A stretch of DNA of 64,000 nt, from NCBI GenBank assembly GCA_965655095.1, contig OZ296659.1, positions 8,742,001 through 8,806,000 on the forward strand. The letters run 5' to 3'. Each line of letters begins with the position of its first letter. Within the stretch, counting starts at the first letter, position 1. The DNA is from Haplodiscus bocki. Its lineage: Eukaryota. Position numbers and translations under genes: made by a program. The notes beneath the pieces are model-generated. The model was given only the letters and a program-made list of their open reading frames with translations, did no database searches and was not told the origin of the DNA. Below, one piece after another: positions 2,885-58,965 of this stretch.

Positions 2885-3036
2885 GAAGTGATGAGTGTGC
2901 GTCGTCAATTCAAATGTTGTGCGGGCTGTTGCTGGTTCGCAGCCTGTCGCAACTGTGCCTACGACGTCTCCATTGAGGCACCCCCTGGACACACTATTGC
3001 GTACGTCACTCAAAATTGCTCACCTTGGCCTCCTCG
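2885..3036 (+). CDS. PLSCR: Phospholipid scramblase exon 4 (Cys-rich palmitoylation motif)
   Basis: ttttag acceptor; EVMSVRRQFKCCAGCCWFAACRNCAYDVSIEAPPGHTIAYVTQNCSPWPP(R); donor GTAAGT, phase 2. This frame is not in the ORF track. Confidence 0.95.
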
Positions 3037-3363
3037 GTAAGTCAAGGGGAAATTTTACAGGTAGATCTTTTCTGAGAAGAATGCAAATCTCACAAAAGCG
3101 TTTTTTCCAGTGGAAAAAATGTGTTGTTTATTGTCAGTAAAATATAGTCTTACATATTTTCAAGTGAAATTGGGCAACCTCAAAATATAGTTGTATTATA
3201 TAATTGAGCCTTATAGCACATGCTTTGTCTTGATAACGCTGAGATATCTACACAAGTCTACGAATTCCCGATTGTAAATCCTCCATGAAAAAGTTCAACC
3301 ACATGAAGGATTAGAAATTTAAACCTCGTCATTAATAGAGTTGAATTTTTTTGTTTGTTTCAG

Positions 3364-19856: not shown

Positions 19857-20129
19857 TAGTGCAGAAACCCTCGTTCTATATCAAAAGGGAAAGCTCCTAA
19901 GCTCAGATGCAGCATCCGCGATTCATAACACAATCAAAACATTGTTGCTCAAACATTTCTAATTCAAATACTTGAACATAATGAAAATATACAAAAAAAA
20001 TTATACAAATAGATATGCAGAAGATATACAATTACAAAAAAATTGTTCCAAACAATTTTTTTGGAATTGCGGTCTTTGTCTGAGCGTAGGAGCTTTCCCC
20101 TTCGATATACAACAATGGTACCTACACTA
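19857..20129. mobile_element. MITE (~270 bp, ~50-bp TIR), copy 1
   Basis: TAGTGCAGAAACCCTCGTTCTATATCAAAAGGGAAAGCTCCTAAGCTCAGA at the left end and its imperfect reverse complement ending CTACACTA at the right; AT-rich core. Confidence 0.8.
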
Positions 20130-20384
20130 CAGCTATTTGTTTTGAAATAAATGGATGTCCAATTCCAATATGATTTATGGGACAAATTGGCGTTTCCTTG
20201 AAAATGACTTCTCTTCCATTCATTGAGTTTATGTTTCATTTCTTTTAAACATTCGAATTTGTATCGATTTAACGCTAGATTGCATATCTGCTCATCTTTG
20301 TATACACTTGCGCAGTCGAGTGTTATTACACAATCTTCAAATTTTTTCCGATCCCTTCACAAATGACAAAAAGTTTCTAAACTT

Positions 20385-22550: not shown

Positions 22551-22739
22551 AGAATTTTTTTCGAGGAAACTTCGCATTTTTTCACCCCGGAGAAACTAGG
22601 GTAATAAGAAAAACTTATTTCCAAAAACTGAAAAAAAGTTGAAAATTTAACGTTTTCAGTTTGGTTTTTTGACCGATTTATAAACTTTTAGCTTTTCTGC
22701 AAAATGAATAAATTTTCTGTCATATTTTTCAAAAATGTT

Positions 22740-23205
22740 AAGAAATGCCGATTTTCTTCAGTTGGGTCGGAAAATGGATACTTTTCGAGAAAAATAGACT
22801 GCACTTGTCGAAAAACCCTAATTTTTGTCGAAAAAAACCCTGTTTTTTGGTTATCAATCTAAAATAAGTAATAATTATGGCGGTTAGCGGGTTTCGAGAC
22901 CCCCACCTTTGGCTTCCTAAGTGCGGTGACGCCCACTCATTTGTATTAATCAAGGTACTAACGGCTCTGCAATAAAGTCTGTGTGTCCTGGGCATATTCA
23001 GAAAAAGGATAAATGAAAAAAACGCAGACTACTAAATTGAATATTTTCCTTTCGAAAAAAAATTTTCGACGGAAAATTAAGACTACTAAAATGACTATTT
23101 TACGTTCGAAAAAAATTTTTTGACATAAAGTAAAAAGGGGAAAGAAACGCAGACTACTGAATTGAATATTTTCCTTTAGAAAAAAATTTTTCGACGGAAA
23201 ATAAT
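22740..23205 (-). repeat. Interspersed repeat containing a tRNA-like segment, with tandemly repeated end motif (family also at 44478-44810 and 44993-45300)
   Basis: Reverse complement of ttttccgtcgaaaaaa...ttttcctga...cccatgac...gttcgaatcc...cagggttttttcgac seen at 44.5 and 45.0 kb; gactacta...ttttcgacggaaaa repeated three times at 23026-23205. Confidence 0.75.
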
Positions 23206-24085: not shown

Positions 24086-24559
24086 AGTGGGCTTTCTACT
24101 GTACCCTCAATACACCGTGAGAGTAATCACCGTTCCCAGCGAATGTCACACAACATCATCACTGGTTTTTCACCAAGCTTGCATCAAGAACTATATCAAA
24201 ATGTTCAAAAAACAATGAATTTTGAATACTAAAATTGCCTCATTTTGCAAGAAGGACAAACAAGATGTAAATATGTTCTTAGAAATTGTACTCATGAAAT
24301 GTTTTTGCAAAATGTCAGCAAACTATCTTTCAATTGTATCGTTGATGGAAAAAAATACTTAAATAGTAGCGAACCATGGAACCAAGTCAAGCAATTAAAC
24401 TTTCAAGAGCTCAATATGAACGTCGGCTGTTTCAGCTTGTTTTGTTCTTGGTTAGTTTCAAAATTTTATTCTTCGACTTCTTCAAATTATGCGTGATCAA
24501 AACAACGTATAGGTAAGCGTTATTATTACTTTCCATTAAAACGTAATTATAAAAAGCAG

Positions 24560-24841
24560 TAGTGTAGAAATCCTCGTTCTATATCAAAGGGGAAAGCTCC
24601 TAGGCTCAGGCAAAGAGATCCGCAATTCTTAACATAATTAAAGCATTCTTTTTTGAAAAAATTTCTGATATTTGTATATATTTTTTTATATGTTTTTGTA
24701 TATCTGTTTTTTGTACATATTTATTAATATGTTCATATATTTGTTTTAGGCAAGAATGTTTTTACTATGTTATGGATTGCTGAGTCTGCGTCTGAGCCTA
24801 GGAGGTTTCCCTTTTGTTTTAGAACGAGGGTTTCTACACTA
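24560..24841. mobile_element. MITE copy 2 of the 19857-20129 family, opposite orientation
   Basis: TAGTGTAGAAATCCTCGTTCTATATCAAAGGGGAAAGCTCCTAGGCTCAG ... CTGAGCCTAGGAGGTTTCCC...GAACGAGGGTTTCTACACTA; probable TA target. Confidence 0.85.
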
Positions 24842-24949
24842 CTCACGTCTTTGTATTGGGTGTCGTAGAATATCAACTCTTATGTTTTGCACAACATGTT
24901 CCAGCGCGCTTCACGCTTCCTTTGGAGATGGTGATTTAATGCTTGGCTG

Positions 24950-31640: not shown

Positions 31641-31721
31641 TTGACTCTGATTCTTTTCGTTGTTTTTGAGTAAGATCGAACATTTTTCGTTTTTCCGCGA
31701 ACTAATCCCGAAAAAAAAAGA

Positions 31722-31896
31722 AAAATGATCCCTAATAGCGAGCGCAGAAGAGAGAACATAAGTATTGCATCGTTTGTATCTAATGTAACCAGAATCCAGG
31801 ATTGTGACCCGTGCTCCGGTTTACCTGGCCGCTCGCCAAATTAGTCTTTTTTGGAAAATCCTCAAAAATCAAAACCAGAACAGGAATTATTTAAGT
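31722..31896 (+). repeat. 5' LTR (recognisable part)
   Basis: gtattgcat..gtttgt..aacca.aatccagg.ttgtgacc..tgctccgg.tt....ccgctcgc...tttggaaaat aligns with 43284-43462 at roughly 70-75% identity by eye. Confidence 0.8.
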
Positions 31897-31914
31897 TGGC
31901 GACAGTTCGGAGAC
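31897..31914 (+). promoter_or_regulatory. Primer-binding site (probably tRNA-Arg type)
   Basis: TGGCGACAGT... directly after the 5' LTR; resembles the TGGCGACCGT PBS of some Gypsy elements. Confidence 0.7.
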
Positions 31915-32399: not shown

Positions 32400-33420
32400 G
32401 AAGAAGACTATTATTGCGAATTTGAACAACTATGAGTTATTTTATGCGCAACAGCCTTTCCAAAAAAAGCTAATTTTTTGCAATTGCATCCTCGAGATCC
32501 AGCTCTAACATGCTTTCAAACTTTGCCTTTGGCTATACATCAAAATTTGGGACTTTCAGTAATAGCGCTCCGGAATCATTTTTGCAATCCAGAGCTACAA
32601 GAACTTCTTATTTTATCTCTTAATAATTTCAAATTTGATTAGAAAACTGATAATACGGAAAACTTTTCAGCAACTTACAACTGAAAGCAATGAAATCGTA
32701 TCCGGATCTAAATCCTTCACTAGTTGCACCAATTAACGTAATGCGGCGGATGCAGCAGTTGAAAAAACCAGATTTGATGAAGAGACGAGGCAGAAGTAAT
32801 TCATTCTGCTGAAGAAGCACTTTCATTTCAAATTCGGCATCAAAAATCAAAAATTTGCCTGGCTGGCAACGTGAAAAGGTGCCCGAGCAACCTGAAATTA
32901 CTACTCGATAAACTATGTAATCTTGCACGAGAGGAACTATCCATTAGTAATCTCTGTAAAGCAGATGACTCAGTGATTAACGCGTTTAGTGAATTTGATC
33001 CCTCAGTAACGGAAGGACTTGTTACCGCCTTGTCAAAACTAACCACTAATCAAGAAGCTATAGTAAATCGCCTAGATGAATTGTGCAAATTTTTTGAAGA
33101 CCGCAATACTACTTGATCTAACTTCAAGAAAATCGCGGGGCTCTTTTTCACAAAATCGTGGATAAAATTCGAATTTGTCGCTTTGAAATCGTGGTAGTTC
33201 CGGATGTCGCTTCCGCGATAACATTCGAGGATTCAGGAACCTCGATGGAACTTTATAACACCTCAGTGGCAATATCGGAAACAGAACAATCATACGCTTC
33301 GACAGCAGTCACAACAGAACTATTTCCTATCGCAAAAATAATTTCATTTTTTTCCTGTTGGAAACTCCAAACCTTCCGCCGCAAAATCAAAGTTTTCTGC
33401 AAGAAAACTAGAATTTTCAA
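32400..33420 (+). pseudogene. gag: gag remnant
   Basis: Position between PBS and pol; fragments LLLDKLCNLAREELSI..., helical segment ALSKLTTNQEAIVNRLDEL, then an Arg/Gly-rich stretch; frameshifted. Confidence 0.55.
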
Positions 33421-33689
33421 CCCTAGTGTTCGATTTTTTCTCACCGAGACCTACGTTTGAAGCTTTTACGGCTGATCCTAACCTATTTTCGCAGTCATAT
33501 ACCTTTCCCATAACCAAATTACTTTGATTAATGAAACGGAAATGGCCCATTTTGAAATTTTAAATGAAGCACAGACTGATAACTTTATCCAAATTGTTCC
33601 TCAGTTGATTTCATTGGCAAAATGCTTGACAGGGAAGACTCTGGTGGCAAACTGAACAGTTGATAGAGGATTTTGAAAGATATGATACT

Positions 33690-35330
33690 CCCGCCAGCGG
33701 ATAAATCAAAACTCTGGTTCACAACTCCGGAGAATTGCGATATTTTTTTCCAAATCGACGCCTGTGTAGGACGATATTCAAGATCAGAATTTGGATTTTC
33801 AACGTATATAAAAGATGGATCCTCTAAGCAATGACTCCGATAGATCAGTTTTTTTTGAAAGTTTTCATAGGATATTTCGGTCTTAAATGCTGACTAAAAA
33901 GGAAACTTGAGGAATTTCTGCTTGAACACGATGATGTGTTTGCCAAACATCGCTTCCTTGCGACCTATAACTTAAAACTCAAGATGAAACAGATGCCTGA
34001 GCACCCACTTCCGGTGTATGTATATTGAGGGTCCACATGCGTGATAAAGTTTTGATTGAAGGCGGATTGTTGCATCACTGCAACATTATAACAACGCTCT
34101 CATTCCAATTACAGTAGGTCGATGTTTGTTCAGCGCAAATCATCAGGTCAGCAAAGAATTCTTATTCAACTACGCCGCATTAACCTTCTCCTACGCCATG
34201 ATTCCTTAAATATCAATCTTCCGTTTTCATTTTTGACGGATACCACAAATCACTTCGCTGGGAAAAGTTTGTTTTGTAGACCAGATTGTTCACAAGTATA
34301 CCCTTGTGTTCACATGGCAATTGACCTTTCAGTCCAACTTTTGGCATTCAACTTCGCTCCTCGAACAATAGCCTACAACTATCCAGCTGAAGGTTTAAAT
34401 GAATCCTTCATGGGGTTCAGTTGTTCTGTGAGGCGTTACTTTGACCCCTGTTTTACTACGAATGTTTATACGAAGTTCATTGATGATTTTGCTGCCGGAG
34501 TTGATAACTTTGATGAAATGATGCCTGCTCTGTGAACTCTACGATTGTTTGAAACAATCTTGTTCGGAACTTTCTACAGATAAGGGTGATTTTGGGACGA
34601 CAAAACTTGATTACCTCGGAAGTACAATTACTCCTAGAGGAATTTCTCCGAATAATGAAAAAAATCGAAAAATTTCCTAAACAAAGTCGAATGCTGAATA
34701 TTGTGAAAGAAGTAAAACGCCTGAATGGCTTCGTAGATTTATCGGAGTTTTATGCCCACGCTTGTACAGAAATTGTTACCTTTTCATGGACTACTCCGAA
34801 AATAAAAAACACTACCATCAATAACGATCATCAGGAATCTTCAACTCGTTTAAAATCTGATTTGACTCATGCTACGGATTTGACATTATGGTTGGCACGG
34901 AAACCAGGCCAGCACGTTGTCCTCTGCGACGCTAATTTTAAAGCCGCTGGATTCGCGCTAATGATTGAAGATTACGTGATTGATCAAAATAGCAAAGTAA
35001 AAACTTACGCTCCAAAATCTTTTGTTTCACGACTTCTTATGTCTACTGAACTGAAGTTTTCAGCATTTTACAAAATTTTTTGGCATTGTATTTTGCCATA
35101 GAGCAATTTTCTCTTTTCATTAAGGGCGCTATAAAACATAGCCGTGTTTCATCCGAAACAGAAGCCTGACTCATTTTTTTCAGTCAAGAAAGATCATCCT
35201 TCCATCTTTGTCGACTTGTCTCGACCAAGTTTTATCATTCAACATTTTGGCTGCTCACGTTCCTGGCATGAAGAAGTGTGCTGCAGCTTTTCCTGCACAC
35301 ATGCTAGTGGATCCCAGTTTGAGTATACAG
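33690..35330 (+). pseudogene. pol: pol remnant: reverse transcriptase and RNase H
   Basis: DVFAKHRF, MFVQRKSSG..RILIQLRRIN, LFCRPDCSQVY (cf. FxKLDxSxAY), AFNF, FIDD at 34476-34487 (YxDD motif), RNase H VLCDANFKAAGFAL...YAP.SF.SR. Confidence 0.93.
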
Positions 35331-35849
35331 ATGAAAGTCACGGATCGTGTCCTTTCAGGCGAAATTGAAATCTAAATTGAAGCAGAACCACCTGGTGTAT
35401 CTCTGTCAGTTTTCGCTGAGACGTAGATGAATTTGGTGATCAAAAAGCTAACGTTGATGAACAGGTCATCAAGTTGAAAGCTCATATTCTTTATGACCAA
35501 TTCTGAGTAAAAACCGATTCTTAATGACGAACCACCAGGCACTTGTTTCTCGATTTTTTTCTCAAAAATGTCCCACGCATCAGTTTGATCAAAATTAACC
35601 TTTTAGAGGCCGCTCTAAATGATTTTATTAGTAGATTAGAGCCTCGTAACTTGAAGCAAGAATGACTCAATGATGAAGTCAATAGTCAAGTAATTTTGCG
35701 GAAAACTCGGGGGACTCCTAAGGAAGCCCCAAATTTGCTTCTTGCTTTGCACTAATCCTGAAAACAGTTTAATCGCCTGGTTGTAGAAGTTCTTACGCCC
35801 TTTCGTTTTTTCTACGCCGATTGTGGCTAAATGAAGTAAAAACAGCTTT

Positions 35850-36950
35850 CTGTACCCAAAACCTTATGGCCAGAAATTGTTGCCACCTAAACAACTGAAA
35901 AGCAGCCGGACATTTCCGCGTTTCCAAAACTCGAAGAACTTCACAGACAACTTTACTTTCCTATTTTCACGGATTTCCTCATACCAAGGACCAAGAACTG
36001 CCCATTATGATTACGGCCTAAACGCGCTCGATCTATAAAATTTACAGCCAGTTTTAACGCTCTTTTCCTATCCTGGTGAAGCCCTTCAAATTGACTTGAT
36101 TGGACCACTCGAGTCACCTGTTCACCGTAACGTGTTGACTGCTTTTGATGTTCTCACGAAATTGTTTTTTGCTGTCCCTTTGACGAATGTCAAAGCAGGC
36201 ACTATTGCCCGTGAACTGACGTCAATATTAGTCCGACATAGCTATGTGCCAAAAGAGAATTGTCTCTCTCATGGGAACTTATTTTGCTTCTGAATCAATG
36301 CATGAAGCATGATATGACTCATTTACTTGAAATTCAACTGGAATATGTAATTTTGAAACTGGTGGGAGTCTTGGAGCGCTCTCATATCGCACGTAATCGT
36401 GTTCTCAAGTTGAATATCAGTGAAAAATGGGCTGATTGTTTCATTTACGTGCAATTAGCGATCTTTATTCACAATACGGGCTATCATTAAGCGATTGGCC
36501 GCAGCCTTGTAACTCTCTCAAGGACGTGAACCATTCAAGCCGTCAGAGCTGCGTTTTACTAAAACTTCGATTGCACGTATATCTGCGAACAGTGAATGTT
36601 TTACCGCATGACAAGATGCAATGAATAAGAGCTTTTGCGAAACGAAATTTAGCTAAATTTACAACAAATACCGTGCCTATCATGATTGCCATGCTGGAGC
36701 CAAACTGTTGGCATTTTTTTCATACTGTTTTTTTTTGAATCCCCAATGGTTTAATCTGATTTGGCGGGTAAGTTTTCACTGATTTGGGTTCCGCTTTCCC
36801 GTGTTGAGAAAATTTTGACAAAGTAACTTTATCATTCAGAAGGTGATCCATAAATACACACAATGTGTCCATCGCACGAGATTGCGACCTGTAACTCAGC
36901 AAAGTTGAGTTCATCTCACGGTTATCAGTTTTGAAAAATTTGGACGAGAT
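35850..36950 (+). pseudogene. pol: pol remnant: DDE integrase
   Basis: AGHF (zinc-binding domain), LQIDLIGPL, VLTAFDVLTKLFFAVPL, GVLERSH, IFIHNTGYH. Confidence 0.92.
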
Positions 36951-37884
36951 CATTCGCTGGGCCACCATCGCGGTGAACCAATGCTTTTTGATGAAATTAT
37001 TTTTTCCCTGTTGATATCTACCACTAAAGGGGTCGCAACAGAAATAATGACTAGAAATCCGCCTTCTGTAACTGTGAGTTTTTGATTCCCAGTCGCTCTA
37101 GCTCCCGTGCTAGTCGGACTGGCAGCTGATGTGGTTCCTTTAACCCCACGTGCTGTGTTGGCGGCCTGAGCCCCCGTGGTGGTACCTGAACCAGCTGAAT
37201 ACGAAGTGGAAGAGCCGTCAGCGCTGGAACGTTCATCTTCTCCTAGTCTACACTTCACTACCGGCGACTGTTCAAATACTTCGCCTAAGCCTGCTGACGA
37301 CCTTTTGAATCCGCAAATTTTTCCTGAGATTGTTCGGGGACCAGTATTTTCTCTTCAATCTTGAGAGGCGATGCCTATTGACAATCGAGGCTTTTTCGGC
37401 CTGGTACAACCTCAGTCAAGCCAATCCAATTTAAGTGATCAATCATTTGATTGAACATTTGAAAAATCCATATACTTTCCGACTGAACCTTCTACTCATC
37501 CTTCCTGTGCATCTATGAATGGACCGGATTGCTCGAGCGCGTTGGCCTCGTCTTCATTAGCTGGGATATCTAATGCATACGCCCTGCGACCCAGCTTACC
37601 AATTCGGGACTCTTATTATAAAGTTGGTCAAATTGAAATACCATGTAATGTTATGTTTTCAACAAGGATCGACACTGATGCCGGACCTGGACAACTTACT
37701 CAAAACCAATAAGGCGAAGCAATACTCAAGTTTTTTAAGAGAACACGTGCACTTCCGAGCGTGCTGAATGAAACAGTTACTCCAAAAACGCATACAACGA
37801 AACATTTCACTCATTCAACACAATCGCCACCTCCAGGTTATTTGAAATGACAACCGGAAGTTAGATCTCGTTAATCTTCGAAGA

Positions 37885-38400
37885 ATTTAAAGAAACGCTT
37901 ACCATCAGAGGTTGTGCTTCGAATCATTGAATCTACTATACATGCAAAATTTTTGCTTCTCACAAGCTTTATCCGAACAGCTGGTACATAGATAGCACAT
38001 TGTGTCCTGAGATTTTGCTATTGAAATAGATTTTTCTATTGAAATAGATTTTGCTGCAGAGATAGGCTGTTGCTATCCCGAGCTGCAAGAAATGTGGTGT
38101 TTTTTGATTTATTTTCCACCTGACGTTCTATTTCCCCATTTGGATCAGCAACATCAGCGACCTAGTCATAATTTAGTCTCATGAAGACGCTATTACCGTA
38201 AACATACCTGTGAAGCGCTTCAACTGAGCCTGCAAGTGTTAAAGCAACACTTCGTACGATATAACATTCAAGAAAACCTTTTTCACACTTAGTTGTGGCT
38301 TTGACCGATTTCTAATAATTTTCATTCAATTTGCCACTACAAACCAAATTTTCGTTATTCCCGGCTTTTAACTTCCGAGGGCTCACTGAGCTTAGCTGCC
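37885..38400 (+). pseudogene. TARG1/OARD1-like (Poa1p-type) macrodomain inside the LTR element, between integrase and env
   Basis: Hand translation across ~3 frameshifts: IAHCV..DFA...FAAEI...YPELQE / RPSHNLVS*RRYYRKHTCEALQLSLQVLKQHFVRYNIQE / LSCGFDRF, collinear with TARG1 motifs AHCIS.D..MG.GIA, IYYLITK...KPTYENLQKSL..MK.H and PRIGCGLDRL. Not in the ORF track. Confidence 0.8.
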
Positions 38401-40684
38401 TTTTCACTGGCTGCCTAATTTCTCACAAATTGCAGGTGTATCCCAGCTTTTGTACCGATTTCTTATCGAACTCCTGAGACAGCATTACTTCTGCCACGGC
38501 ACATCTTAGCCGCAATCGAATGGCATATGTTGTTCTACTCCTTTTGAGTGATCTGAAATTTCGTCCGCCTTTTTTGTCTGATATTTCTTTTGCTCGCTAC
38601 TTTTTCGATCGGTCAAGAGGTAGAAGAGATTTGGAGACACACATCTCCCTCCTTGCGCTAGGTTGACTCGGAACGATGCTACTGTGGACTCTTCTAGACC
38701 GTGAAGGCCAGTACCAGTTAATTTCTCTGCCAGCTCCCTGACTTTGAATTTCTTTTCTGTGCAGATCACTGGTCGTTCTACTCTTACAACGCAAGGGCGT
38801 TGCCACTGGTTTCCTTTGGATACTCGAAAAACACTTTGGACAGTCATGCAACACTCTCGGCATGCAGCAAACTTTTGGTGTCTTTAATGGCAGTTATTTG
38901 TAGGGGTACTACAGCAACAAGAAGCAGTTAAATACGTTGAACAGACGCTTTCAAGTCGACTGAGGAAACTTGGGATACCCCAATCTTGTAGTTGAACCGC
39001 CCCACGTCTTCTACACTTTTTTCTTCTGCTTGAATCGACCTGATGACACTCTCGAACTTTTCAATCGTGGGTACTTGTTTATCGGCCCAGAGAAATTTTC
39101 CATCCTTCTGGGAAAAACAATTCCAGTCGCTCCGCCCACATAATTTTCTTTTCCCAACTGTTGGTGACAGTCTCATCCATTTCACTTTGTACCATAATGT
39201 AGATAGCATGATATAGAAGGGACTCCATAATGATTCTGCAGATGATTTTTTTGGTCAGTGCCCTATGGCATTTGATCTCTCGCCTATTTTATGAGAGCCC
39301 CATTTGACACAACAGATGCCCTCAGTTGTCATCTATTAGTTTTGTTTATATGACTCTTTTTTCGGACGTTCTAAGGACTGACGACTTACTATCCGTCCTT
39401 CAGTCTTTTCCTGCGTTTCTTGTTTCCTTAGATCAGGTGTAGTTTGCTCTCAGGTCCTCTCATTTCATTTTTACGATGCTCGGTAAATCGGTATTGACCA
39501 TTCCTTTCCAATTGACTTCCTCAAAAGACAGCATAACTAACCATATCGTTGGTGTTCAACATGTTGAGGAAGGAAACCTTACGATGAACCTCCCTGATTG
39601 GCGAAGTTCTTGTGTTCGTTGGAGCAGAACCTCAGTGGTGTGAGTTCGTCACTTTTAAACACTCGAGCGATTTCACGGCTCGCCGATCTCATGGCTCACG
39701 TGGATTCAGTTAGCTCCAATTCAGTTAGTTAAAGAAGGAACTCCTCACGAACTTTACGCAAATCCAATGTTCTTTCATGTTTTGACAATTTGTCCTACGC
39801 TGATTTGATTTCAGACTTATACTCATTGAACGCCGAGTTTATTCAAAGTATCTGCTTTCTTTTCAAACAGTTTTCCTAATAATATAATACATAACTTTGA
39901 ACTTCAAGTTTTTCTCCAACGCCCAAAAGGGACAATGAAGTGTCATAGTTACACTTGTGCTGACTCTGTCCTGTTCCTTCTTATGTGTTTTAGGACTTTC
40001 CATTCGGAGAAGTAAAATTTTATCCAGAAACGTGAAAACAAAAAAACGCTCCTTGAAATTCTCAATTTTTGCTCAGACAAGCTACTAGCAAAAGTTCTGA
40101 CACAGTAAGTAACGTAGCAACACATTTTTCACTACCTGAAATACACTCATATGAGCTACAGGTTGCGAAATTTTTTTCAGTTCGCCATTTCAAGTATTCA
40201 ATTAGGCATTACGGAAACTGCGGAATGATCCGATATGATCGTTGACTGGTGATCACGGCACAAAAACTGTGAGTACAAGGGCTGCAACTTTCTTTTTTGA
40301 GGCTGAAAGACTCGGGGTTTTATCTTAGACTGTTGCAAGACTGTTGCAAATTTGCAGAACTTTTTGCGTTACATCTTCTGATGTTTTTCGTTTTTTTCCA
40401 GCTAAAGTCAATCGGCTACTTCTTGACATTTTGTTTCTTGAATGTCTGCACCAAAATTTTCTAAGCAAACACGACCTTTTCTAGAAAAAATCTGATTATC
40501 GGGTTTAAATGTCCCAGCTTGTTTACTCTTTTGTTACATCTTCAAACTTTGAAACCAGCGCTGAACAAGTTTACTTACAAAATACTTTCAATATTCACAA
40601 ATCTTTCCGTTGACATAGTATGTTGCTTTTGTTTTTACTAGCTGAAACAACTTTGAAACTCCAAAAGCATTGAACCCTGCCACC

Positions 40685-43010
40685 ATGCTGCTGATTCTCG
40701 GTCTTCTTCTGCTCCTGCTTCACTCCTGCTTCAGCTCGAAATAACTGGGCTTCCAACATTGAAGCTTCTGAGCCGGACGACGTAACCGAAATGGGGTTTT
40801 GTTTAATGAGATCAAAAAATCTTTGACTGAAAAGTTTTTTCGATTGGAATTTATTGTACCGTTTCTGACCTTCGCCTTTACCATGAAATCGTATCTCGAA
40901 CAAATGTTTAATCAGCTGTTGATCATATGAGAAAGTATGCTTCTTTTTGGCCGTTTTAGTTTGCAAACCAATTCACGACTAATAAATGTTGCTTTAAGGT
41001 AAATTGGAAGGTGCATCAAATTGACCATGAAATTATTGAAAAGCGCAAAAGAACCTGCAAATTATCAGTAACCAAAATCCTGTGTTCCTCTCGCCACCCA
41101 AGCCTACAGAACCAAACAGCCAAAGACGCGGCGCAGTTTTTGCTCTTGCTGCCCTCGCCGCCGTAGGACTTTTCGGAGGAGGACTTGCTGTTGGCGGAGC
41201 CCATGAGTGTTGTTTGCATTGTATTTGTGGCCATTGCCAACAAAATGGAAGGCGAATGCCGAAAATACCCGTAGTCTTGCCTATGTCACTGACTTTGCTA
41301 CTATCACCGAAGAAAGGATTCACATGGTGGAAAATGAACTGTCGGCTTTGAACGCTATTCTTGGCGGAATAACTGCGACACTAGGTAAAACTGGATCTTT
41401 CTTCAGGAGCAGCTAAACGTTTACGAGCAAAGTTGTCATATTCTTCGTGACTGCGACCAACCTCTTGCAAATCAACGACTTAAATTCAAATTTGATACCG
41501 TTTCTTTGCTTGCGATGATTCATCTTAGCGTTTAGAGCTACCGATCAGCTTTGTTCGCTTTCCGCATGAACGTTTGAAATTCTGTTCCTGTTTTGCTTCA
41601 AGGAATTTCGTCGATTTTGCTTGTTCCTAGGGATTCGTTTCGGCTGATCTTGGATAGTGTCAGTTCACAAGAATCAGAAGCTGTGGATTGGCTATTTTAA
41701 CTATTCCAACCAGCGATCTTCGGTTCTTTTTTGACTCTCGTTTGCTCGATAATGCTATTACGGTCTCAGAAGGACTCTTGTTGACCCTCAACATACCGCA
41801 TGCTTCACGGAAGACCGTTTTCACACTTTTCGAAGCAGACTTATTCCTATGCTTCTTCCAGACGACCGTCAGTGTGCTCTTGCATGGAACATTGAAGCTC
41901 CATATTTAGTTTTGTCTGGAAGTAACTTATAGTCGTCAATCTTATCTGCTGAACATTTAGAGCACTGCCTCGTTCCTTTAAGTATCGAATTTGCTCTCAA
42001 ACTCTTGAACCGAGATAGGACATTCTTGTTGCGTCGCTACTTTATATTTCTTCAATACTCTTGATGCTTCAGCTGTTTGTGAAACGTCTTTTAATAACGT
42101 TACCTTTTAATGAACAGGCTGCGACTTTAGGTTTTGGAATTTGGTTCATCAGATGCGCCCCAGTTCATTTCACTTCGTCAACCGTCAACGTTGATGCCAT
42201 CGACGACTTCACCATCGTTTTCGGGTTGTAACATTGCATTTTTACTAATTCGTCTGGCATGCAAATCCACATTGTTAATGTCATCATAAAGTTCGACCTT
42301 ACATCTTGTCATGTAGCTGCAAATAAGTTTCGTTTGTCTCTGGCGGATCCACTTCAATCAATAATCGTGCAAGTCTTCCTTTAGCAAACCTACCGTCATA
42401 GACCTCCAAAGCAGGAGGAGTGACTTCTCGGAGCCGTGAGAAAAGTTCTGATCAGCAGCCCGAACGTTGGCCAAGTCAGTCAGTCTGTGGAGATAGCACG
42501 TCTGTTCGCGCAGGACTTCAAATTTCTGAAACTTTTTTGTACTCGTTAATTGAATCAATATGTTACCTTCAAAGTATCATTCACCTTGAAATTGGTGGTT
42601 TTCAACGTCTCAGCAGTGCTGCATGTTGTTTTCATGTACCTTCATCACCGTTACAATCTTGCCGACCGTACAAACTGTCACATTGCATAAGAAGACTGCT
42701 ATCAAACCTGTGCTACAGCTTCCGGAAGGACACTCAACAACTAGCTGCTCTATCAATGGAGCTCTTTGACCCCGATGGCGTTTTGTTTCGCTTCCGCTCA
42801 GACGACCTAGTCTCGTAAAACAGCTGGAATCAACGCGTTCGAATAAACCTAGCACTGCCCTTGATCCGCTTTATTTGAATACACTTAAAGTCGAAGCTCA
42901 ACGAGGAAGCTCGACTCAATCAAATCATGAGTACACTGAGATACATCAACGTCATTTTGACCCTCTGAACCGGGTAACAGTCAAAGTACTGCCTCCCCCG
43001 CATGATTGAC
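40685..43010 (+). pseudogene. env: env: class I viral fusion glycoprotein remnant
   Basis: gccaccATG + signal peptide MLLILGLLLLLLHSCFS; basic site SQRR followed by fusion peptide GAVFALAALAAVGLFGGGLAVGG (41130-41198); heptad-like NAENTRSLAYV...MVENELSALNAIL; Cys-rich ectodomain; TM-like VSFTLKLVVFNVSAVLHVVFMYL (~42575-42645) then HHRY and a tail. Confidence 0.85.
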
Positions 43011-43283
43011 TTGACATCTCATCTTTTAATCATAAATATTCATCAATAAATGAAATATTGAATATTCTCAAATTTTTTGCTGTAAATTGTACGTAGTATT
43101 TTTCTGGCTCACTGCAATGACGAAGGCAACAATTTGGGGCTCGTGGAAAAAAGTACGTCACAGCACGATAACGGAAAACTTTGAGCAAACGGGTACTTGT
43201 GCTGGATTCCAATTTTCTTATTTATGGATAAACTTTTTTTACTTGTCGGGAATTCTTTTAACTTCTTTCTCAAAAATTAAAGT

Positions 43284-43462
43284 AAAAATGAGCCTTAGTA
43301 ACATGCTGTGAAGGGAGAAAATTATGTGTATTGCATGTTTGTTTTTTAACCAACCAAAATCCAGGTTTGTGACCATGCTCCGGATTGCTTGTCCGCTCGC
43401 TAAAAAGATCTTCTTTGGAAAATTCTAAACAATCAGGATCACAAAAAGATGTATTTTAGTTT
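43284..43462 (+). repeat. 3' LTR (recognisable part)
   Basis: Direct repeat of 31722-31896. Confidence 0.8.
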
Positions 43463-43589
43463 TTTTACGAAAGACCTCAGTGTTGGATAAGCATAACAAG
43501 AAAATCAATCCGTTTCTCCTTTGGTGGTCCCAAGATTTTGTAAGGAACAAGCTTTTGAAGGTTCAATTTCACAGCCCCGGAGAACCTAA

Positions 43590-43980
43590 ACTTTTCGTGA
43601 GAAATGACTTACTCCAAACCAAACCCTAGTCCTTCGGTAGTAGATTAGTTTCCACAATGAGTACTGATTTCTTGTGAAGATGCGAAGCTTTGTGGTTTTG
43701 AGAGTTTGCGAAAAGCCCGAAGTTTATTGGGCCATAGCAGGTTCCGATCGTGTCATTCATAAAATGACGCCGTCGAATTGTAACTAGTCTCGAATGTTCT
43801 GCCAACTGAGTTGTGTCCGCTGCTGTATTGACCTTGCAGCAAATTATAGAGCAATATTTCTGCTATATCGTTTCGTACGTGTTAAGTTCGTACATAAAAA
43901 TATTGGAACAGACTGGTTTTGAAATTTATTTTTTCTTGACTCAATAAGTAGAACTCGTAGTTAGCGTGGACCCGTCAAAA
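43590..43980 (-). mobile_element. Possible Penelope-like RT fragment
   Basis: PVCSNIFMYEL (cf. PxxANIFM) and RRRHFMNDTI (cf. WxRY(M/V)DDT) in one frame. Confidence 0.35.
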
Positions 43981-44477
43981 ATCTTTTATACTCGTTCGAT
44001 TTGTTCTCTAGTCTGTTGTCTGTGCACTTGTAATCCGGTGGCGCAAGTGTTATGAAGCGTTCTTTGCCTCTTGGAAATAATATAATCATTTTCGGGTCCA
44101 CTCTCTGTTAGCGAACGTCTTCGCGAGGCTGCACGAGTTGTGAGAGACTGCACGAGTTGTGAGAGAACTTTGAGATAGAAAACTATTCCAAACAAAACAT
44201 GAATTCCCCTTGAAATGTTTTGAGCTTTATGGGCAGCGCTGACCCCAGTCATTGTAGTCTTGTTGACTTTTTCCTTCTCAGCGCGAAGTGTAACGTCCCG
44301 AAGTCGTTCAACGGATCATTTTTTGCCTGTACTTTACTGGAAACGTTCAATTCATCAATTTCATTCAATTTTGTGGTAAATATGTTTCCTAGTTGGTTAA
44401 TTGTTGAGCAGCAACATTGTTACCTATATTCGTTTAGAGGAGAAATGACGATGGTTTTGAATATTGTTTAATATGTT

Positions 44478-44810
44478 TTTCCGTCGAAAAAAATTTCGAA
44501 AGGAAATTATTTAATTCAGTTGTTTTTTCCCTTTTCCTGATTTTGCCCATGACGTGCAGAATCATCTGCAGAGTTGTTGGTGTCTTGTATAATACTTCTG
44601 TAGGGTGTCACCGCGGTTGTGAAGCCAGAGGTGGCCAGTTCGAATCCCGCTGTCGACCCTAATTTTTGCATATTTTCAGATACTCATTAACACATTCCTA
44701 TTTTCTAAAACAAAAAACAGGGTTTTTTCGACCGAATGTAGGGTTTGTTGAAAAAGGGGCTTTTCTCAAAAATTATCCGTTTTATTACGTAACTGAACGT
44801 TTTTTTCTGA
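44478..44810 (+). repeat. tRNA-segment-containing interspersed repeat (family of 22740-23205)
   Basis: ttttccgtcgaaaaaaa...cccatgacg...agttcgaatcccgc...cagggttttttcgac. Confidence 0.75.
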
Positions 44811-44992
44811 ATAGTTTTCAAAAAATTGTATCGTGAAGTTGTCATCAACTGGACGTTTTATGGATTTTTCATGAAACTCTTTCTGACGAAGATTGTTTGC
44901 TATTGAAAGTTGTCATGCGCAAAAACTTAAAATTCAAAAACTTACCTTCTAGTCATCGTGGACTGAAGTGCCAGCCAGCATTGTATTTCTTA

Positions 44993-45300
44993 TTTTCCGT
45001 CGAAAAAAATTGCGGAATCAAATTATTGAAATCAGTAGTCGGAGTTTCTTCCTTTTCCTGAAACTGCCCATGACGCGAAGGCTTCTCGTGTCCGCAGAAT
45101 CGTTCGCGGCTTGCATAATACACCTGTGGGGAGTCACTGCGATTGGGGAACCAAAGTAGTGGGTTCGAATTCCTGTATGGGCCATTTTTTCCTTGCTCTC
45201 AGATATTCGTTAACTCACTTATATTTTACTACCAAAAAAACGGAGTATTTTCGAAAAAATTTAAGTTTTTCGATAATTGAGCTCTTTTTCTCGAAATTTT
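44993..45300 (+). repeat. Second, tandem copy of the same repeat family
   Basis: ttttccgtcgaaaaaa...ccttttcctga..cccatgacg...gggttcgaattcc. Confidence 0.7.
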
Positions 45301-45309
45301 TCTCCTTGG

Positions 45310-46330
45310 ATCAAAATCTTCATAGTCCGAAATTTCCAAAAGAGGCGTTTAACACTGATTCATCCCCGAATTCAATTTTTTTCTCCCTAACTACAGGCTC
45401 GATTTCTAGCATGAAAATCTCAATCGAAAATTTTCAACTTGTGGCAAAATAATTCATTGAAAAATTGTCGATTTTGAACGCTGCATCAGAGCCGTGATTG
45501 TCCAAAGGTTCCAGAAAGCGCTTTTATATCGATTCACCCCGATTATCGAACTCTTGTTTTCCTCTGTAACTAGAGGTTTATTTTCTTTCAAGAAAATCTC
45601 TAAACTTTTGCAGGTGTATTCAATTGAAAAATCATTCTTTTTGTTCCTTGCCTCAGACTTCTGATAGTCCGAAGATTCCAACTGTGCTAATATTTTTGAT
45701 TCATTTCCATATTCAAAATCTCTTTTCTCAGTAAATATCAGCTTTCATAAAGGTTTCAATTGAACGATATACACATATGGAGGAGAATCCTCTTGTAGTC
45801 CGAATATACCAAAATATGCTATGAATTCTTGTATCAATGTCTGAATTGACATTGATATATTTTTCGCGGTATCTTTTATGGAACAATCTCTGATTGTGTC
45901 CCTTCGATTGGAAACTCGATGGTTTGAAAATGCAGAAAGGTCCATTTGATTTTCATTTTTCGTCGATCTTCAAACTCAGAATTCTCTAAAGTTACCGGCT
46001 TGAATCCTTCCGACAAGGTAACCGTCGAGACGTTCTTGTCAAAAACGGTTTTTTGGAATTGATATGGTTTGTGTTAGATCAAAGTTTTGCGCCACATTGA
46101 CGGAAAATATCGCAGTGCGACTGCGCTTTTTGTTTGAATGATCAAATAAAAAACAATAGAATTGAGCGATGACATCAAATTCGGAAAAGAAACTTAATTA
46201 AGATTTATTCTGTTGTTTGGCCACATAATTGCATCAAGAGATGTTCGATCCCTGATTTTTTCCCCCGGATTTTTTTTTCGGACAAACTACCGGTTGATAG
46301 CCGGTATAGTAGTTCTAAAAATGTCACTTT
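45310..46330 (+). pseudogene. Decayed LRR gene, paralogous to 20850-22550
   Basis: FFSLTTGSISSMKISIENFQLV and FSSVTRGLFSFKKISK match FSVTRGLISIMKVTISNLSL of the 22-kb copy; shared nucleotide run tgtaactagaggttt(a) / aaacctctagttac. Confidence 0.55.
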
Positions 46331-46778
46331 TGTGTTCAAAGTTTCTGGTTTCAAAACCTTTATGCATAAGGGAGAGGGGCAGGGTATCACGATTTTTCGC
46401 CGAAAACTTTTTAGTGTCGGAGAACCTCGTAAGTCGGACCCTTTGATGTTTTTGACAATTTGCCGGTGCATTTTACTGTACTAGCAGGATTTAAAATAAA
46501 GCCATTGAAAGAATTAGAGGAAAATGTAGACAATTCGTTGTGATCTTGGATAAACAAAGTGATCACAAGGGTTGGCTTTTTTACTCAAGTAAGGCGCCGA
46601 CTAAATAAGCCTTTTAAGAAATGAAAATGAACACCACTGATTCTGGTTGAGCATTTTTAGTCGGCGATCTGCTGCAGTAAAAAAAGTCAAGCGTACAAAC
46701 ACTCGTTTTTTTTGCTACTGCTAAAAGGCCGAAATCTTTGATGAAGCTGCAACTTGGAAACTACCGTTGATCTAGAGA

Positions 46779-46880: not shown

Positions 46881-47350
46881 TCATTTGTTATCATGCACCC
46901 TTATATTTTTTAGAGGTACGGGTAGTAACCTCAGACAAGACTTTTAGTGTTCATCTAGACAGAGTTTTTTGTCGGAAATTTTACAGGTGTGCCGAATTTT
47001 GACATGGTACTGTTGTGCTTGTTCCTGTGATGGGCAGCATTGACCTGAGCATTTCGAGTTTTCTGCTTAACCAGGATGATAAAGCGCAAAATAAAACGAG
47101 CAGATTTATTTATTTATCTAATTTTGTTTCGCATCAAGTTTTTATTCAAGTAATGCAGTCATCTGTCCCGCTTTCTGTTTCGTACGCGCTCAACGCGTAC
47201 ATTTCTGTATTTAGATTCGGCATAGCATCTTGGGAATGATGAAAATGTTTTTAATCTGCACCGATTGCGGCGATCATCCCATATTTTGCTATTTTTTTTT
47301 CTTTTCAGGAAAATCGAATGTCTTGAATCTTTCATTCATTAACCTACAAA

Positions 47351-47809
47351 GTGGTGGCATTGAGTACAGAATTGATAGAATGTGCTATCTGCAATGAATC
47401 ACTGGTGGACCCGAGACCTTTACCTTGTGGCCACTGTTACTGCGGACCGCCTCGGCCTTGCTTGACTTCAATGGCCAGTACCGCAGGGGTGTTACGCTGC
47501 GCAGTTTGTCGAGTGGGTCATGACTTGAAACCTGAAGACATCAAACCTTTGTATGGAATACGTGACTGCTTTCAGAGCAGCAGTGGTGTGCAAACTATGA
47601 AAGGCCCTCATCTTCCTTGTAAATTACATTCCAAAAATGAGTATACAATGTTTTGCAATCGATGCTTGGTCATGATATGTGACAGTTGCATTGATGAAGA
47701 ACATGATGGACATCCAATGAGGAAATTGAAGAAGTACCTGATGGAAATTCTGGAAAGCAATTTCGGAAAGCCTTTTATGGAGGGCATCGTGGAGTATCGT
47801 GAAAAGTAA
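47351..47809 (+). CDS. TRIM-like RING (C3HC4) + B-box 2 protein; truncated, spliced or recently pseudogenised
   Basis: CAIC...PCGHCYC...C...CAVC RING and CKLH...MFCNRCLVMICDSC...HDGH B-box in an uninterrupted 152-codon frame; strong acceptor tttttcttttcag ending 47308; no in-frame ATG before the RING after the TGA at 47324. Confidence 0.8.
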   Translation: MVALSTELIECAICNESLVDPRPLPCGHCYCGPPRPCLTSMASTAGVLRCAVCRVGHDLKPEDIKPLYGIRDCFQSSSGVQTMKGPHLPCKLHSKNEYTMFCNRCLVMICDSCIDEEHDGHPMRKLKKYLMEILESNFGKPFMEGIVEYREK

Positions 47810-53110: not shown

Positions 53111-54011
53111 TTTAATTTGCTATGGTAACTGTCAATTTGCTCAGTAATGTCTTGGAAAAATTGAAAACCTTTTGCTGAAAACATTTTATCGCAAACGATG
53201 GCTGGAATTGGCGTTTAAAGCATAAAGTAAGAAAACTACAAACGTTAAAGAAGACCTTCCAGATTGCAAACGAAAGTTGGACTGTCATCCACGTATGAGG
53301 GGTCCCAGATACGTGAGACATCGACAGGGCATTGTACATAATTACATTACCCTTCATTGCCATAACCTCTTTTCAATGATACGAAGTCAACCACTTTTTT
53401 TCGGTCGTTACTTCTGTTGCAACTTTTTAAAGCCAAATGACTGATTGTTTCTGTAGGAGGTGTTCTCAACATATCTGGGGAGAAGGCGGCCACCAGATGA
53501 TGTTTTGTGCAAGTGAACACATCCGGAGGTACAAGTTTGAGTACCTTTGAAGGCCATATTAGACATACGAGAATGGATTTTTGACAAAAATTAAACTTGA
53601 GAAAACTCGAAAGTAGTTATAGTCGAAAAGACTGATACACGTAGTACCCTTTCTCGATGTAGGAGCTTACGATATCACAACCATGAAGAAATTTGGGTGA
53701 AAGTCAAATTCGACCTACTTTCGGTGAGCTACTGAAAGTTGAATCCGCGTTCAAGCAAATCAGATGTTTTTTTTTGTCCAACTCTAATGCAAAAGCTGGC
53801 GCTGTCTGTTCAGGCGGAAACCTGTTCTGAAGCAAAATTCGATTCGGCAGAAAGGTGCGGTTAACCAATATTTGATTGGAACTAGTAGATCGAGTTCTTT
53901 TTATAAAACGTTTGAAGCAAAGTAAAGTAGTTGAATATTCCCCAATCAGATTTTTTTTCTGTGTTTTGATCCATTATTTGGATGGAATCATGACTTAGTC
54001 AATTAGTTTCC

Positions 54012-57000
54012 ATGATGACATGCGATATCTGTCGAAAAACTTTTGCTGATAAATTTAACCTAAATCACCATCGAAGAAATCTTCATAAACATCCTCTGTA
54101 TTTTTGGCTCAAGAATTACGCAAAATGTCGTTCATCTGAACTTTCATTAGCTCTGATCAAAACACATTTCCCTCAAAAACATCAAATTGGTCCGAAGAAA
54201 TTTTCTATTCACTGTAGATTCGGTTTTGATGACGTAGAGGAGTTTTACAAATATCTAGGCGACAAACACGGTTCGCCACGAACTCCGGATCCTTTTCGCG
54301 AAAAATCAAGACCAGTTGCATCAGCGTTGATTGGAGATCCGAAAATCTGTACAATTCCTCGTTCCGAGGAAATTAACTAGTTGCAGTTTTCCACGGATTT
54401 CAAACCTTTTATTGATGAATCGGAAATGTCAATCAATCCGCAAGAAAAAATCTATGCATTGCGAAAGTGGATCTGTCCAAGCCGACTAAGGAAGAAGAAA
54501 CAACACTTTTCTCCCTTTCGTGCATGCAACCCGTGTATGATACACGTTTACCTCAGGGTGCTTCTCTTGGAATGGTGGACAGACTACTCAACCCTTCATT
54601 CGTTTTCACAGGCTCTGGCAGCGGATGGATAGTTGACAGAATTGTTCAACTTGATGTCAATTTCGCCAGCATTAATACTATTCGAGGATCTTCTTCTTTA
54701 CGAACTCCGGAGAAATCGAATCGTCGGATTTGCTTTTGAACTTCCGAAACCGACATGATCGTAATTGCTTCGTGTATTGTTTCACTGCAACTTGTCACCT
54801 GAGGTACAAACCATAACTTCATGTTGCAAGCCGTGATGGTGCTGAGAAGCGAACAAGTCCAGACACCCACTTTTCTCGAACTCCAGTTGCTCATCAAGCA
54901 AGAGGCGAATTTGAAGTGTTGTTGTTCGTCGGGAAGATGTTTCGTTTCGAAAAGATGAACAGCTGCAAAATTAACATCTTCCGGTACCTGGACAGGGAAC
55001 CCATGCCCTTGCGAGTTTCACAACGAAATCCACCGATGGCCTGTAAATCATAGGCAGCTATTGCAGTATGTCCTGATAAAGGATCTTGTGAGACTAGTCA
55101 ATAGAATAAAAGGATCCTTCACTCACTGGGGAAGAGTTCTGTTTATAGACTGTTTCCACATATGCCTGAACCATTAGTTTTACCGACGCCCTAAATCCAG
55201 CTGTTTGAATCATCAACCAGCACTAGTCAAAATACCTAAAGCTAGAAAATAAGGCCTTCAGGTTCGAACATCTCGCAGCTCCTTAGTTCACTCCAGTGGT
55301 GATTTACTTCGCCTCGAATCTCTCTTACTACCAGTCACAGGTTTCATCACTGCAAATCGAAACAGTAATTTAACAGAAATTCATCGACCGACTTTCTTTT
55401 GCATGGTCACAAAAGGGCATGGAAACCCCAAACCATTTTTCGCGAAAGTGGAGAGGTCGGCTGATTGTATGTCGAAGTTCTTAGAAGCTCCTCAGAACTA
55501 CAGCTCAGAAGTCAATACAAGAAAACAGTGTAAGCGATACTACAGTGATTTTGTTCCAGAAAGGCAACAGGAAGAGCATTTTTTCTGTGCTGGCGAAGGT
55601 CAATTCGGTCCGTCTTTAGATGTTGAAAATCACAAAGTGGTCGATCGCTGTCTTTAATTGGGCCGATTTCTAGGACTTGTGAACCCGGAGTTCAATCTGA
55701 AGTGACGAATGATTAATTTCATCCCAGTAATTTCTCATAATCTGTCCAACTATGACCTGCATCGCGTTTGCCTGTACATTCACAAGTTTGAACCTGGTTG
55801 CAAGGTTGATAGTATTTCCTGAACTGACGAGAAGTGTATCACTCTATCAGTCGTCGTGCTCATCAGGACGTAGAGACAAGAATAGAACAAGCAAAGAAGT
55901 TTACGATTATCTGAGCTTTTTGGACTCTTATCGCTTCATGGGCTGTTCTCTCGACAAGTTGGCAAAATACTCGCCCGAAGAAAAATTTCAAAATTTGAAT
56001 AACTGCTTCCCCAGTGAAACAAAAGCAAAAAACTTCATCGAAAAGGTTACTACCAAATTCTTCGTTGAATTTCACAACTTTGAAGAAACCTTCGAGAGAA
56101 TAATGATAAGATTTTCTTGGAGATTGGTCAATCATCGAGCCTCAACGGGAGTATGCAGAAAAGTGTATCGGAACTTCAACTGCAGTAACCTGGAAAACTA
56201 TAACGACCTTTATTTGTTAACAGATTTTTAGTTTCACTTGCGTGTTTTGGTCAAGACTATCGAGACCTCTGCTACAAAACATACGGCCTTGATAGTGCTC
56301 TTTTTTCACATGCTTTAATCCTTCTGGCGATGCTTTCCTCGAAAAGTGTAAAGGGGATATAGAACTTTTCATAGAAAAAGAGTACTTCAAAATAGTGGAG
56401 AACATGTTGCAAGGAGGCGTTTCTTTATTTTTTGACAAAAAGTTCTTCACCGTAAACAAGTATGTTCGGAATCATGACTCTAATGACTACGACAGCTATG
56501 AATTACTGATTGATACCAATAACCGTTTCGGAGGACTAATGTAGAAGTTTCCGGGTCTAGTTGAACCCTTCCCAAAGAATGCTGACTATCAACCTCAATT
56601 TGATCTTAGAAAAATCGATTCTGTCAGAGTTTGTGTATGTTCTCGAAGTTGATTTGGATCATCTTGATTGACTACATGATGGTCATCAAGACTTTCCGTT
56701 GGCTCCCACAAGAGAAGGAATTCACTACAAAGCCCTGGGAGAAACAACAGGAATTGTTGGAGCAGGTAAGAGTAAAACGTCAGTATATTTTGGTCAAAAT
56801 GTCGATTCCTTCAGTTGCTAACGAAAAAAATATACCATTCACTACATGAACTTAAAGTTATACGTCAGCTTGGGATTAGAAGTAACAAAAGTCCTCCTAG
56901 CTTTCAAATCTGGTCAATCGTTCTGGTTGACACCATACCTGCAACTGAGTGTGAAAAAAGTCAACAGGCGCAGAACAAATTCTATAAACTGATGAACAAC

Positions 57001-57750: not shown

Positions 57751-58564
57751 TTAAGACATGGCAGATGTTCCTGACTGGATTTATGGAAGAGAACCACCAA
57801 GTCGAACGTTGGATGAACTGATTGGCAATGATGCCATTCGAAATAGTTCTCAAATTTACCCTAGTGAAGCACAAAACCCAATAACTGGTCCCTTTTCGAA
57901 TGCGGTAGCAACACAGGTTGAAGCACTTATAGCACTTATATTTATGACACAACAAATGATCGATATATGGTAACCGCGCGATCGGAGAAGGTACCATGAA
58001 GAATACTCAGATTCAGAATTGGGAGAATGTACAGTTGATTTGGATCAATCTATCGGGAAACAGAATCCAGGGCGCAATCTATTTTTTAACAATGAAGCTG
58101 ATGAGGCTTCACAAGAAGTCCCGAACGGATGCGATGAAGATTCTAATGAAAATGACTGTCAAGTTGTTAGAACCTACACGGAAGATGAAGCAAATGCAAT
58201 GTAGGGCTGGGAGTTTCTGAGATTTCGACAATTTGTTCAGTGATTACGAAGTTGTCAATAATCTCAGAACAGCAGACTGAAGACGCCTTCATTTTGAAAG
58301 TGCCGGTGAATGAGTTGTTTGACGTGATTTTTTATGAGCTTTATTACACTGCTTTCGTGTGAGTCATTCGCACATTGTGTTGATTTGTTCAATACATGGC
58401 TTCGTTAGATGTTAGATGTTTTCTGAAGTACCTGTTCTATAACTGGAGTGAGTGTTATATGAATTTAGTTTTGTGTGAAAAGCCTGTTGGCTGGAGGAAC
58501 AACCAAAAAAAGGTAGAGATTGATTGTACTGAAAGAATCCAAACGAGATCAGGTCAAATCTTCA

Positions 58565-58965
58565 ATATATAGATGCCTATAATCTGCCAAAATTGTCTAA
58601 GAATATATGTAGCTATACCAGGTAGATTGCGTCATTTTTTAGTACATATCTGCCTCTTTCTTGCCAAATTAGTGCATGAGTCTTAATATGTATGCCCATA
58701 CTAAGTATCTTGCGTTAATCTTTCAGTATATAGGTGCCTACGGTAAGCCAAAACAGTCTAAGAGTCTGAATATGTAAGCCTATGCTAGCTATATTCCATC
58801 AGTTTTTCAGTTTATAGATGCCTACGATAGGCCAAAACAAACTGAAAGTCTGAATAAGTAAGCTTGTAATAGGTGTATTCTGTCAATCTTTCATTATATA
58901 GATAGATGCCTATGGTATGCCAAAACAATCTAGGAGTCTGAATATGTATGCCTATACTAAGCAAC
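58565..58965 (+). repeat. Degenerate tandem repeats, probable Polinton subterminal region
   Basis: Recurrent (ta)gatgccta(t/c), gccaaaaca and gtctgaata(t)gta motifs. Confidence 0.6.

Follow-up and report, generated by a model that had tools for sequence, protein, structure and literature searches.

The window analyzed here, a 64,000-nucleotide stretch of Haplodiscus bocki contig OZ296659.1, very probably harbors a long-dead, env-bearing Ty3/gypsy LTR retrotransposon whose ancestral env gene encoded an F-family type I membrane glycoprotein. Judged by its layout and the predicted fold of a relative, the gene appears to belong with a kind already known, the F-type Env of Ty3/gypsy elements, here in the form of a dead copy. 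Under the operational definition used by Chary and Hayashi (eLife 2026, PMC13524379), the element counts as an errantivirus.

The retrotransposon and its broken env gene

The element is ~11.8 kb long and follows the order LTR, PBS, a possible gag, pol, a macrodomain remnant plus gap, env, and LTR. Its features, all on the forward strand, are as follows.

31649..31897 (+), 5' LTR remnant, aligned to 43205..43461
31897..31914 (+), PBS-like sequence starting TGGCGAC
32781..33116 (+), ORF fragment where gag is expected, by position only
33491..37082 (+), broken pol
about 34090..34535, 34860..35370, and 36040..36300 (+), RT, RNase H, and integrase core within pol
38170..38356 (+), probable TARG1/OARD1-type macrodomain remnant, C-terminal half
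40618..40641 (+), pyrimidine tract plus AG, candidate splice acceptor read from the sequence
40679..40687 (+), Kozak-consensus start GCCACCATG
40685..43009 (+), broken env, assigned to the F type
40685..40741 (+), hydrophobic, signal-peptide-like leader, by translation and hydropathy
41121..41198 (+), remnant of a dibasic cleavage site, then a fusion-peptide-like segment, conserved in relatives
about 42574..42642 (+), transmembrane-like segment, by translation
43205..43461 (+), 3' LTR remnant, aligned to 31649..31897

The two LTR remnants align with a score of 178, whereas the highest-scoring of 200 shuffles reached 42, and are the single such repeat pair in a self-BLAST of the window. LTRs of one element are identical at insertion; since these are now ~25% diverged in their core (p-distance, 0.247; JC, 0.30), the copy is old. 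The PBS-like sequence lies exactly where LTR similarity ends and is missing at the 3' copy; no tRNA genes were found in the window. Upstream of pol, neither Pfam nor Atlas recognized a gag gene, and only ORF fragments are present. The pol remnant was delimited by tblastn against a natural Pol protein, P0066 (29 to 40% identity; E = 4e-73), which locates the RT, the RNase H, and, through its C-terminal region, the C-terminal part of the integrase; the integrase core was placed by eye. P0066, the one Pol relative available and itself devoid of the bridge between RNase H and integrase, carries the Pfam domains RVT_1 and RT_RNaseH, and the window itself gives a weak match to RT_RNaseH_2 (E = 0.009). 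The RNase H of P0066 directly follows the thumb and aligns with the Ty3 RNase H, with the D/E/D acidic positions kept. Among structure chains, P0066 scored best against the PR-RT-RH chains 7ksf and 7kse (E = 5e-26), which we take to be of foamy virus origin, and reached an E value of 6.5e-22 with the Ty3-type RT. Pfam scans of 12 whole frames read through with X gave no match in any of them; because even the RT was missed, blanks from these scans carry little weight. The assignment to a Gypsy-type element made in the preliminary description thus holds: env is bracketed by an LTR pair with a PBS-like site and lies downstream of RT, RNase H, and integrase remnants, the RNase H of the relative P0066 being of the Ty3 type. 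Between the last pol match and env is a gap of ~3.5 kb. Related contigs pile up over the RT and the middle of env, whereas most of the gap is near single-copy depth, contig depth over the element not being equivalent to copy number.

The env remnant comprises, in order, a signal peptide, a short N-terminal subunit, a cleavage site, a fusion peptide, heptad helices, cysteine-containing beta domains, a transmembrane segment, and a tail, as judged by 53 to 63% identity to five natural relatives and by the modeled fold of one of them. The Kozak start reported earlier is genuine: GCCACCATG occurs twice in the window, against an expectation of 0.19, and 0 of 100 shuffles reach that count. Its ATG is also the start of the natural relatives, with P0008 aligned from residue 1 at 40694. 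As a property of the window copy, the gene's own Kozak ATG therefore stands; however, a perfect Kozak is missing before the ATG of a related env on metagenome contig L001, so that on present evidence (n = 1) it is not a hallmark of the family. A hydrophobic leader follows, as described; it is 19 residues long, MLLILGLLLLLLHSCFSSK, and its frame closes afterward. The junction of cleavage site and fusion peptide, QRR|GAVFALAALAAVGLFGGG at 41121 to 41183, places the putative cut 148 codons from the ATG, in line with the earlier reading, but of the R-x-[K/R]-R motif the window copy retains no more than the dibasic end. The heptad-like helices, the transmembrane-like segment, and the tail, all noted earlier, match those of the relatives; the frame of the tail closes at 43009. 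The ectodomain cysteines are likewise conserved, and the description of them as cysteine-rich stands for 12 to 21 cysteines in 640 to 800 amino acids.

The window copy is a pseudogene that cannot encode an Env protein. Frameshift-aware alignments to the five natural relatives extend over 486 to 684 codons and require 11 to 14 frame changes and 5 to 8 stops, depending on the relative, spread along the gene; no long ORF exists in the env region. Two Logan contigs from one public run jointly span 36882 to 44505 without a gap and are identical to the window, which excludes a consensus error and places the breaks in the DNA. The public runs that match this interval number four, come from at most two samples of one study, and possibly represent the source sample, so they do not count as independent support.

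An infectious ancestor of the element is a reasonable inference. By analogy with F-family biology, the ancestral Env would have entered the endoplasmic reticulum via its signal peptide and formed trimers; furin would have cut after about residue 148 and so released the fusion peptide, with the heptad helices then refolding to bring about membrane fusion. Particles may then have passed from cell to cell, probably from soma to germline. Because the env ATG is its own and lies far from pol, env was presumably expressed from a separate mRNA, either spliced or transcribed from an internal promoter; the acceptor-like tract 43 nucleotides 5' of the ATG and an AG 1 nucleotide 5' of the ATG in L001 would fit splicing. 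For most env-bearing elements outside Drosophila, the transmission mechanism is not known (PMC13524379).

Fold and relatives of the Env protein

The fold was modeled on an unaltered natural relative, P0024, which is 53% identical to the window copy, with a 76-row alignment. The AlphaFold2 model (pLDDT, 76; pTM, 0.65; low confidence in the fusion peptide and tail) predicts two long helices, at residues 185 to 263 and 266 to 315, after the fusion peptide. A Foldseek search of the PDB returned 153 matches at E ≤ 1e-3, and all 33 of the matches listed were paramyxovirus or pneumovirus F proteins (best E = 6.5e-6). The same was true of the 50 matches listed by VIA, led by the RSV F head (Z, 9.0; rmsd, 4.5; 245 residues aligned); the F proteins of RSV, NDV, HMPV, hPIV3, and Nipah virus scored Z values of 8 to 9. 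The VIA run re-ranked the Foldseek matches, with Z ≥ 8 for 16 of 993 chains, and values of 8 to 9 lie barely above the level that the tool terms a common arrangement. TM-scores were low (0.15 to 0.39, normalized by the query).

Against the viral proteins of BFVD, the model matched best a Hubei myriapoda virus 8 protein (E = 1.5e-20); glycoproteins of chu-related and chu-like viruses were among the further top matches, and a baculovirus F protein ranked fourth (E = 1.3e-15), the best matches all being 10 to 16% identical. The second-best match was A0A145VUZ2, an uncharacterized 801-amino-acid protein of abalone herpesvirus (E = 1.1e-19; 16% identity). The top Atlas clusters were annotated as Baculo_F (12 to 23% of members) or Fusion_gly (82%), at cosine values of 0.95 to 0.96 and with a recognition score of 1491, under the Atlas mark of 2300. 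Pfam assigned Baculo_F to 4 of the 76 alignment members (best E = 1e-6); it gave no match on the read-through window frames or P0024, and the Env profile, when run against PDB sequences, had no match under E = 0.014. Four kinds of search nevertheless agree despite the modest Z values, and the model-based assignment of env to the F-type class I fusion Envs is supported.

Two statements of the preliminary description are borne out by these results. The layout proposed there, that of paramyxovirus/pneumovirus F and baculovirus F, is matched by the short N-terminal subunit, the F-like fold predicted for P0024, and the Baculo_F and Fusion_gly clusters; and the AlphaFold and Foldseek comparison suggested there, carried out on P0024, yielded an F-like fold. 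Like the viral F proteins (PF00523 and PF12259), the Env combines a short N-terminal subunit, a cleavage site, a fusion peptide, a long heptad helix, and a predicted beta-rich head. It differs from them in being only 6 to 14% identical, in its greater length and its 50- to 130-amino-acid tail, and in being borne on a retrotransposon.

The Env family is large and diverse. With a 121-residue Env piece as the query, 18 of 116 candidates matched at E ≤ 1e-3, with 48 to 67% identity. Full-length ORFs of 797 and 798 amino acids are found in the clusters of these relatives; three of the four members of one cluster are 783 amino acids long, and 9 of the 15 members listed for another measure 725 to 737 amino acids. 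A profile built from 22 relatives recruited 1,451 clusters (50% identity) at E ≤ 1e-3, and 289 at 1e-30, drawn from ENA, Logan, NCBI, and JGI sources. Identity within the family ranges from 20 to 70%, distant members being 20 to 30% identical to each other. Of the 27 relatives at least 640 amino acids long, a hydrophobic stretch comes after R-x-[K/R]-R in 23, and N[LVI][GR]xGxW, a motif that has decayed in the window copy, occurs in 21. The family motif in the fusion peptide region is G-L-F-G-x-G. Eight cysteines are invariant in the C-terminal half of the family alignment (A5), and the long relatives likewise possess a leader and a C-terminal transmembrane segment, by hydropathy.

Sequence searches and cluster look-ups returned no informative name for any family member or cluster, and 20 distant Env members used as the query retrieved solely the query's own first sequence. 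Pattern matches among viral contigs (0 of 102 and 0 of 43) contained no Env relatives; among metagenome contigs, 1 of 123 pattern matches was a relative, that on L001. This env, at positions 819 to 3170 of a 3.8-kb contig too short to include pol, is 54% identical and has few breaks. Compared with L001, the sequences flanking env on both sides were no more alike than shuffled ones (48 and 87 of 200). None of the relatives recovered was an intact one that carried both pol and env on a single contig. In the clusters of P0072 and P0070, which are related Env families, full-length members sharing at least 90% identity are numerous, a hint that copying took place recently in some genome.

A probable macrodomain remnant between pol and env

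A macrodomain remnant, not mentioned in the preliminary description, is probably present between integrase and env, as indicated by profile comparison. When the whole window was searched with a profile built from 40 macro proteins of phages, gathered by motif, positions 38170 to 38356 gave the best of 3,192 six-frame pieces (16.2 bits; iE = 0.0011), and a frameshift-aware scan of both strands scored the same locus at 75.4, against 53.5 for the next. Four of five tested members of the profile match PF01661. Before the profile search, a region at ~37980 to 38350 had been judged macro-like by eye, from its motifs. Direct scans of 38170 to 38356 against Pfam, PHROG, and PDB were blank. The C-terminal ~45 residues of P0066 weakly resemble human OARD1/C6orf130 structures (E = 0.43 to 0.99), and its C terminus matches phrog_335 with E = 0.046; the N-terminal macro motif in P0066 matches the phage macro profile at E = 1.7e-9, a value that is partly circular. 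BLASTP gave no alignment between P0066 and the macro piece of the window, and the C-terminal stretch of P0066 had no match in phage collections.

Two other interpretations of the gap were discarded. Tandem macrodomains, an impression gained by eye, were rejected because a single locus stood out in the frameshift-aware scan; an antisense gag was without support in the Pfam scan and was abandoned once the forward-strand macro remnant was found. The ~2.2 kb from the macro remnant to env (38360 to 40600) gave no family match on the pieces scanned and may hold accessory coding remnants.

Comparable domains are those of TARG1/OARD1 (C6orf130), phage macrodomains, and the macro ORFs noted in fish epsilon-like endogenous retroviruses (reviewed in PMC4977317). 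The last of these share with the present case a macrodomain inside a retroelement; the putative remnant differs in lying downstream of a Ty3/gypsy integrase and in being detectable only as a decayed half domain. For env-bearing Ty3/gypsy elements, the literature searched, which most subscription papers lay outside, contained no report of a macrodomain, and the word "macro" does not occur in the main text of PMC13524379.

Known systems, alternative origins, and genomic surroundings

Intact Ty3/gypsy elements with an F-type env have been described from tunicates, cnidarians, ctenophores, rotifers, and arthropods, with Tor4b adjoining the tunicate F-type elements (PMC13524379). Like these "ancient errantiviruses," the element in the window has LTRs enclosing a Ty3/gypsy-type pol and, downstream of it, env, and its Env shares with theirs the signal peptide, furin site, fusion peptide, transmembrane segment, and RSV F-like fold (the fold here being predicted). 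It differs in that the copy is dead and that ~3.5 kb separates pol from env, more than the 1-kb gap allowed by the first filter of that survey. The host is presumably an acoel flatworm; in the supplements of PMC13524379, as far as these were available, 11 acoelomorph names gave no matches, and no report of an env-bearing gypsy element in acoels was found in the literature searched, beyond the reach of which most subscription papers lay. For the Oikopleura elements Tor3b and Tor4b, Henriet et al. (2015, PMC4402516) describe Env motifs, products of the size expected from furin cleavage, a stretch that separates pol from env, and an internal env promoter. Compared by description, the family of the present element resembles both in its own env start, an N-[L/V]-G motif with aromatic residues close by, the cysteine set before the transmembrane segment, and the furin site, and the present element resembles Tor4b in the gap between pol and env. 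The family departs from them in having eight rather than seven invariant C-terminal cysteines; F-x-G occurs in only 8 of its 23 long members that possess a furin site.

The preliminary description had raised the possibility of an independent env acquisition in this animal lineage, and a capture of this sort, by the same element, from a chu-like virus or jingchuvirus, a malacoherpesvirus, or a baculovirus F-like gene now appears unlikely. Such an origin would be consistent with the best BFVD matches, all proteins of free viruses (Hubei myriapoda virus 8, abalone herpesvirus, and chu-related viruses), with the failure of Env sequence searches to return a named retroelement Env, and with the exclusion of a single origin of env-bearing elements in PMC13524379. 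However, at 10 to 16% identity and from a database of viral proteins only, these matches name no env donor. Furthermore, the deep diversity of the Env family, with its 1,451 clusters and its 20 to 70% identity, and the presence in it of the N-L-G/aromatic motif and of the C-terminal set of cysteines known from Tor3b and Tor4b (PMC4402516) argue against a local acquisition, as does the evidence that F-type env in Ty3/gypsy is widespread in animals and, as is argued in PMC13524379, was acquired in ancient times.

Two further explanations concern the identity of the element itself. It is highly unlikely to be a lokiretrovirus- or Odin-like element outside vertebrates. Lokiretroviruses (PMC7947760) likewise combine an LTR retroelement with an F-like Env containing a signal peptide, RXKR site, fusion peptide, and transmembrane segment, and PR-RT-RH chains are the best PDB matches of P0066; but lokiretroviruses and Odin retrotransposons (PMC9040795) are defined by a dual RNase H, lokiretroviruses are reported from vertebrates, and Odin lacks env. 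The first RNase H of P0066, by contrast, looks like an active Ty3-type enzyme, with the acidic positions kept and Pfam assigning RT_RNaseH, and no second RNase H was detected before the integrase in scans of the broken frames, which had low sensitivity. That env is foreign to the element of the upstream pol, through two adjoining insertions, a captured viral gene, or a host-domesticated env, can scarcely be credited: the ~3.5-kb gap, mostly without a family match and near single-copy contig depth, would fit such a composite, whereas pol and env, which share a strand, both lie inside a single pair of repeats whose 5' copy is followed by a PBS-like site, and both genes recruit many related contigs. 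The 11 to 14 frame changes in env rule out a working host gene.

As it stands, the copy is one more dead example of a class widespread in animals. More tentatively, it could represent a clade, large and so far undescribed, of Ty3/gypsy elements with an F-type env in a host group that published surveys have not covered, with multicopy, full-length env ORFs in relatives, infectious, and equipped with a TARG1-like macrodomain that would remove ADP-ribose as a counterdefense resembling those of RNA viruses; we regard this combination as possible but doubtful. If the family did form its own clade in an early-branching host not yet surveyed, it would provide a test of whether the F-type env and Ty3/gypsy pol were joined before the bilaterian split; a macrodomain next to env, if real, would implicate ADP-ribosylation in the defense of hosts against such elements.

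The remainder of the window contains several unrelated features. Just past the 3' LTR, very high-copy dispersed repeats occupy 44477 to 46500 and are related to those at 21500 to 23200. Pfam identified a coding stretch with RING and B-box domains (TRIM-like) at 47327 to 47809 (+), a scramblase-like exon at 1868 to 2167 (+), a C2H2 zinc-finger stretch at 53994 to 54380 (+), and, in two overlapping frames at 61283 to 62406 (-), a DDE_Tnp_1_7 transposase, presumably piggyBac-like. The RING and B-box, C2H2, and scramblase stretches fit a eukaryotic host that is probably an animal. Two copies of a MITE-like element of 280 to 290 bp with terminal inverted repeats lie at 19857 to 20138 and 24551 to 24843, and a tandem array of ~84-bp units extends from 58557 to 58961.
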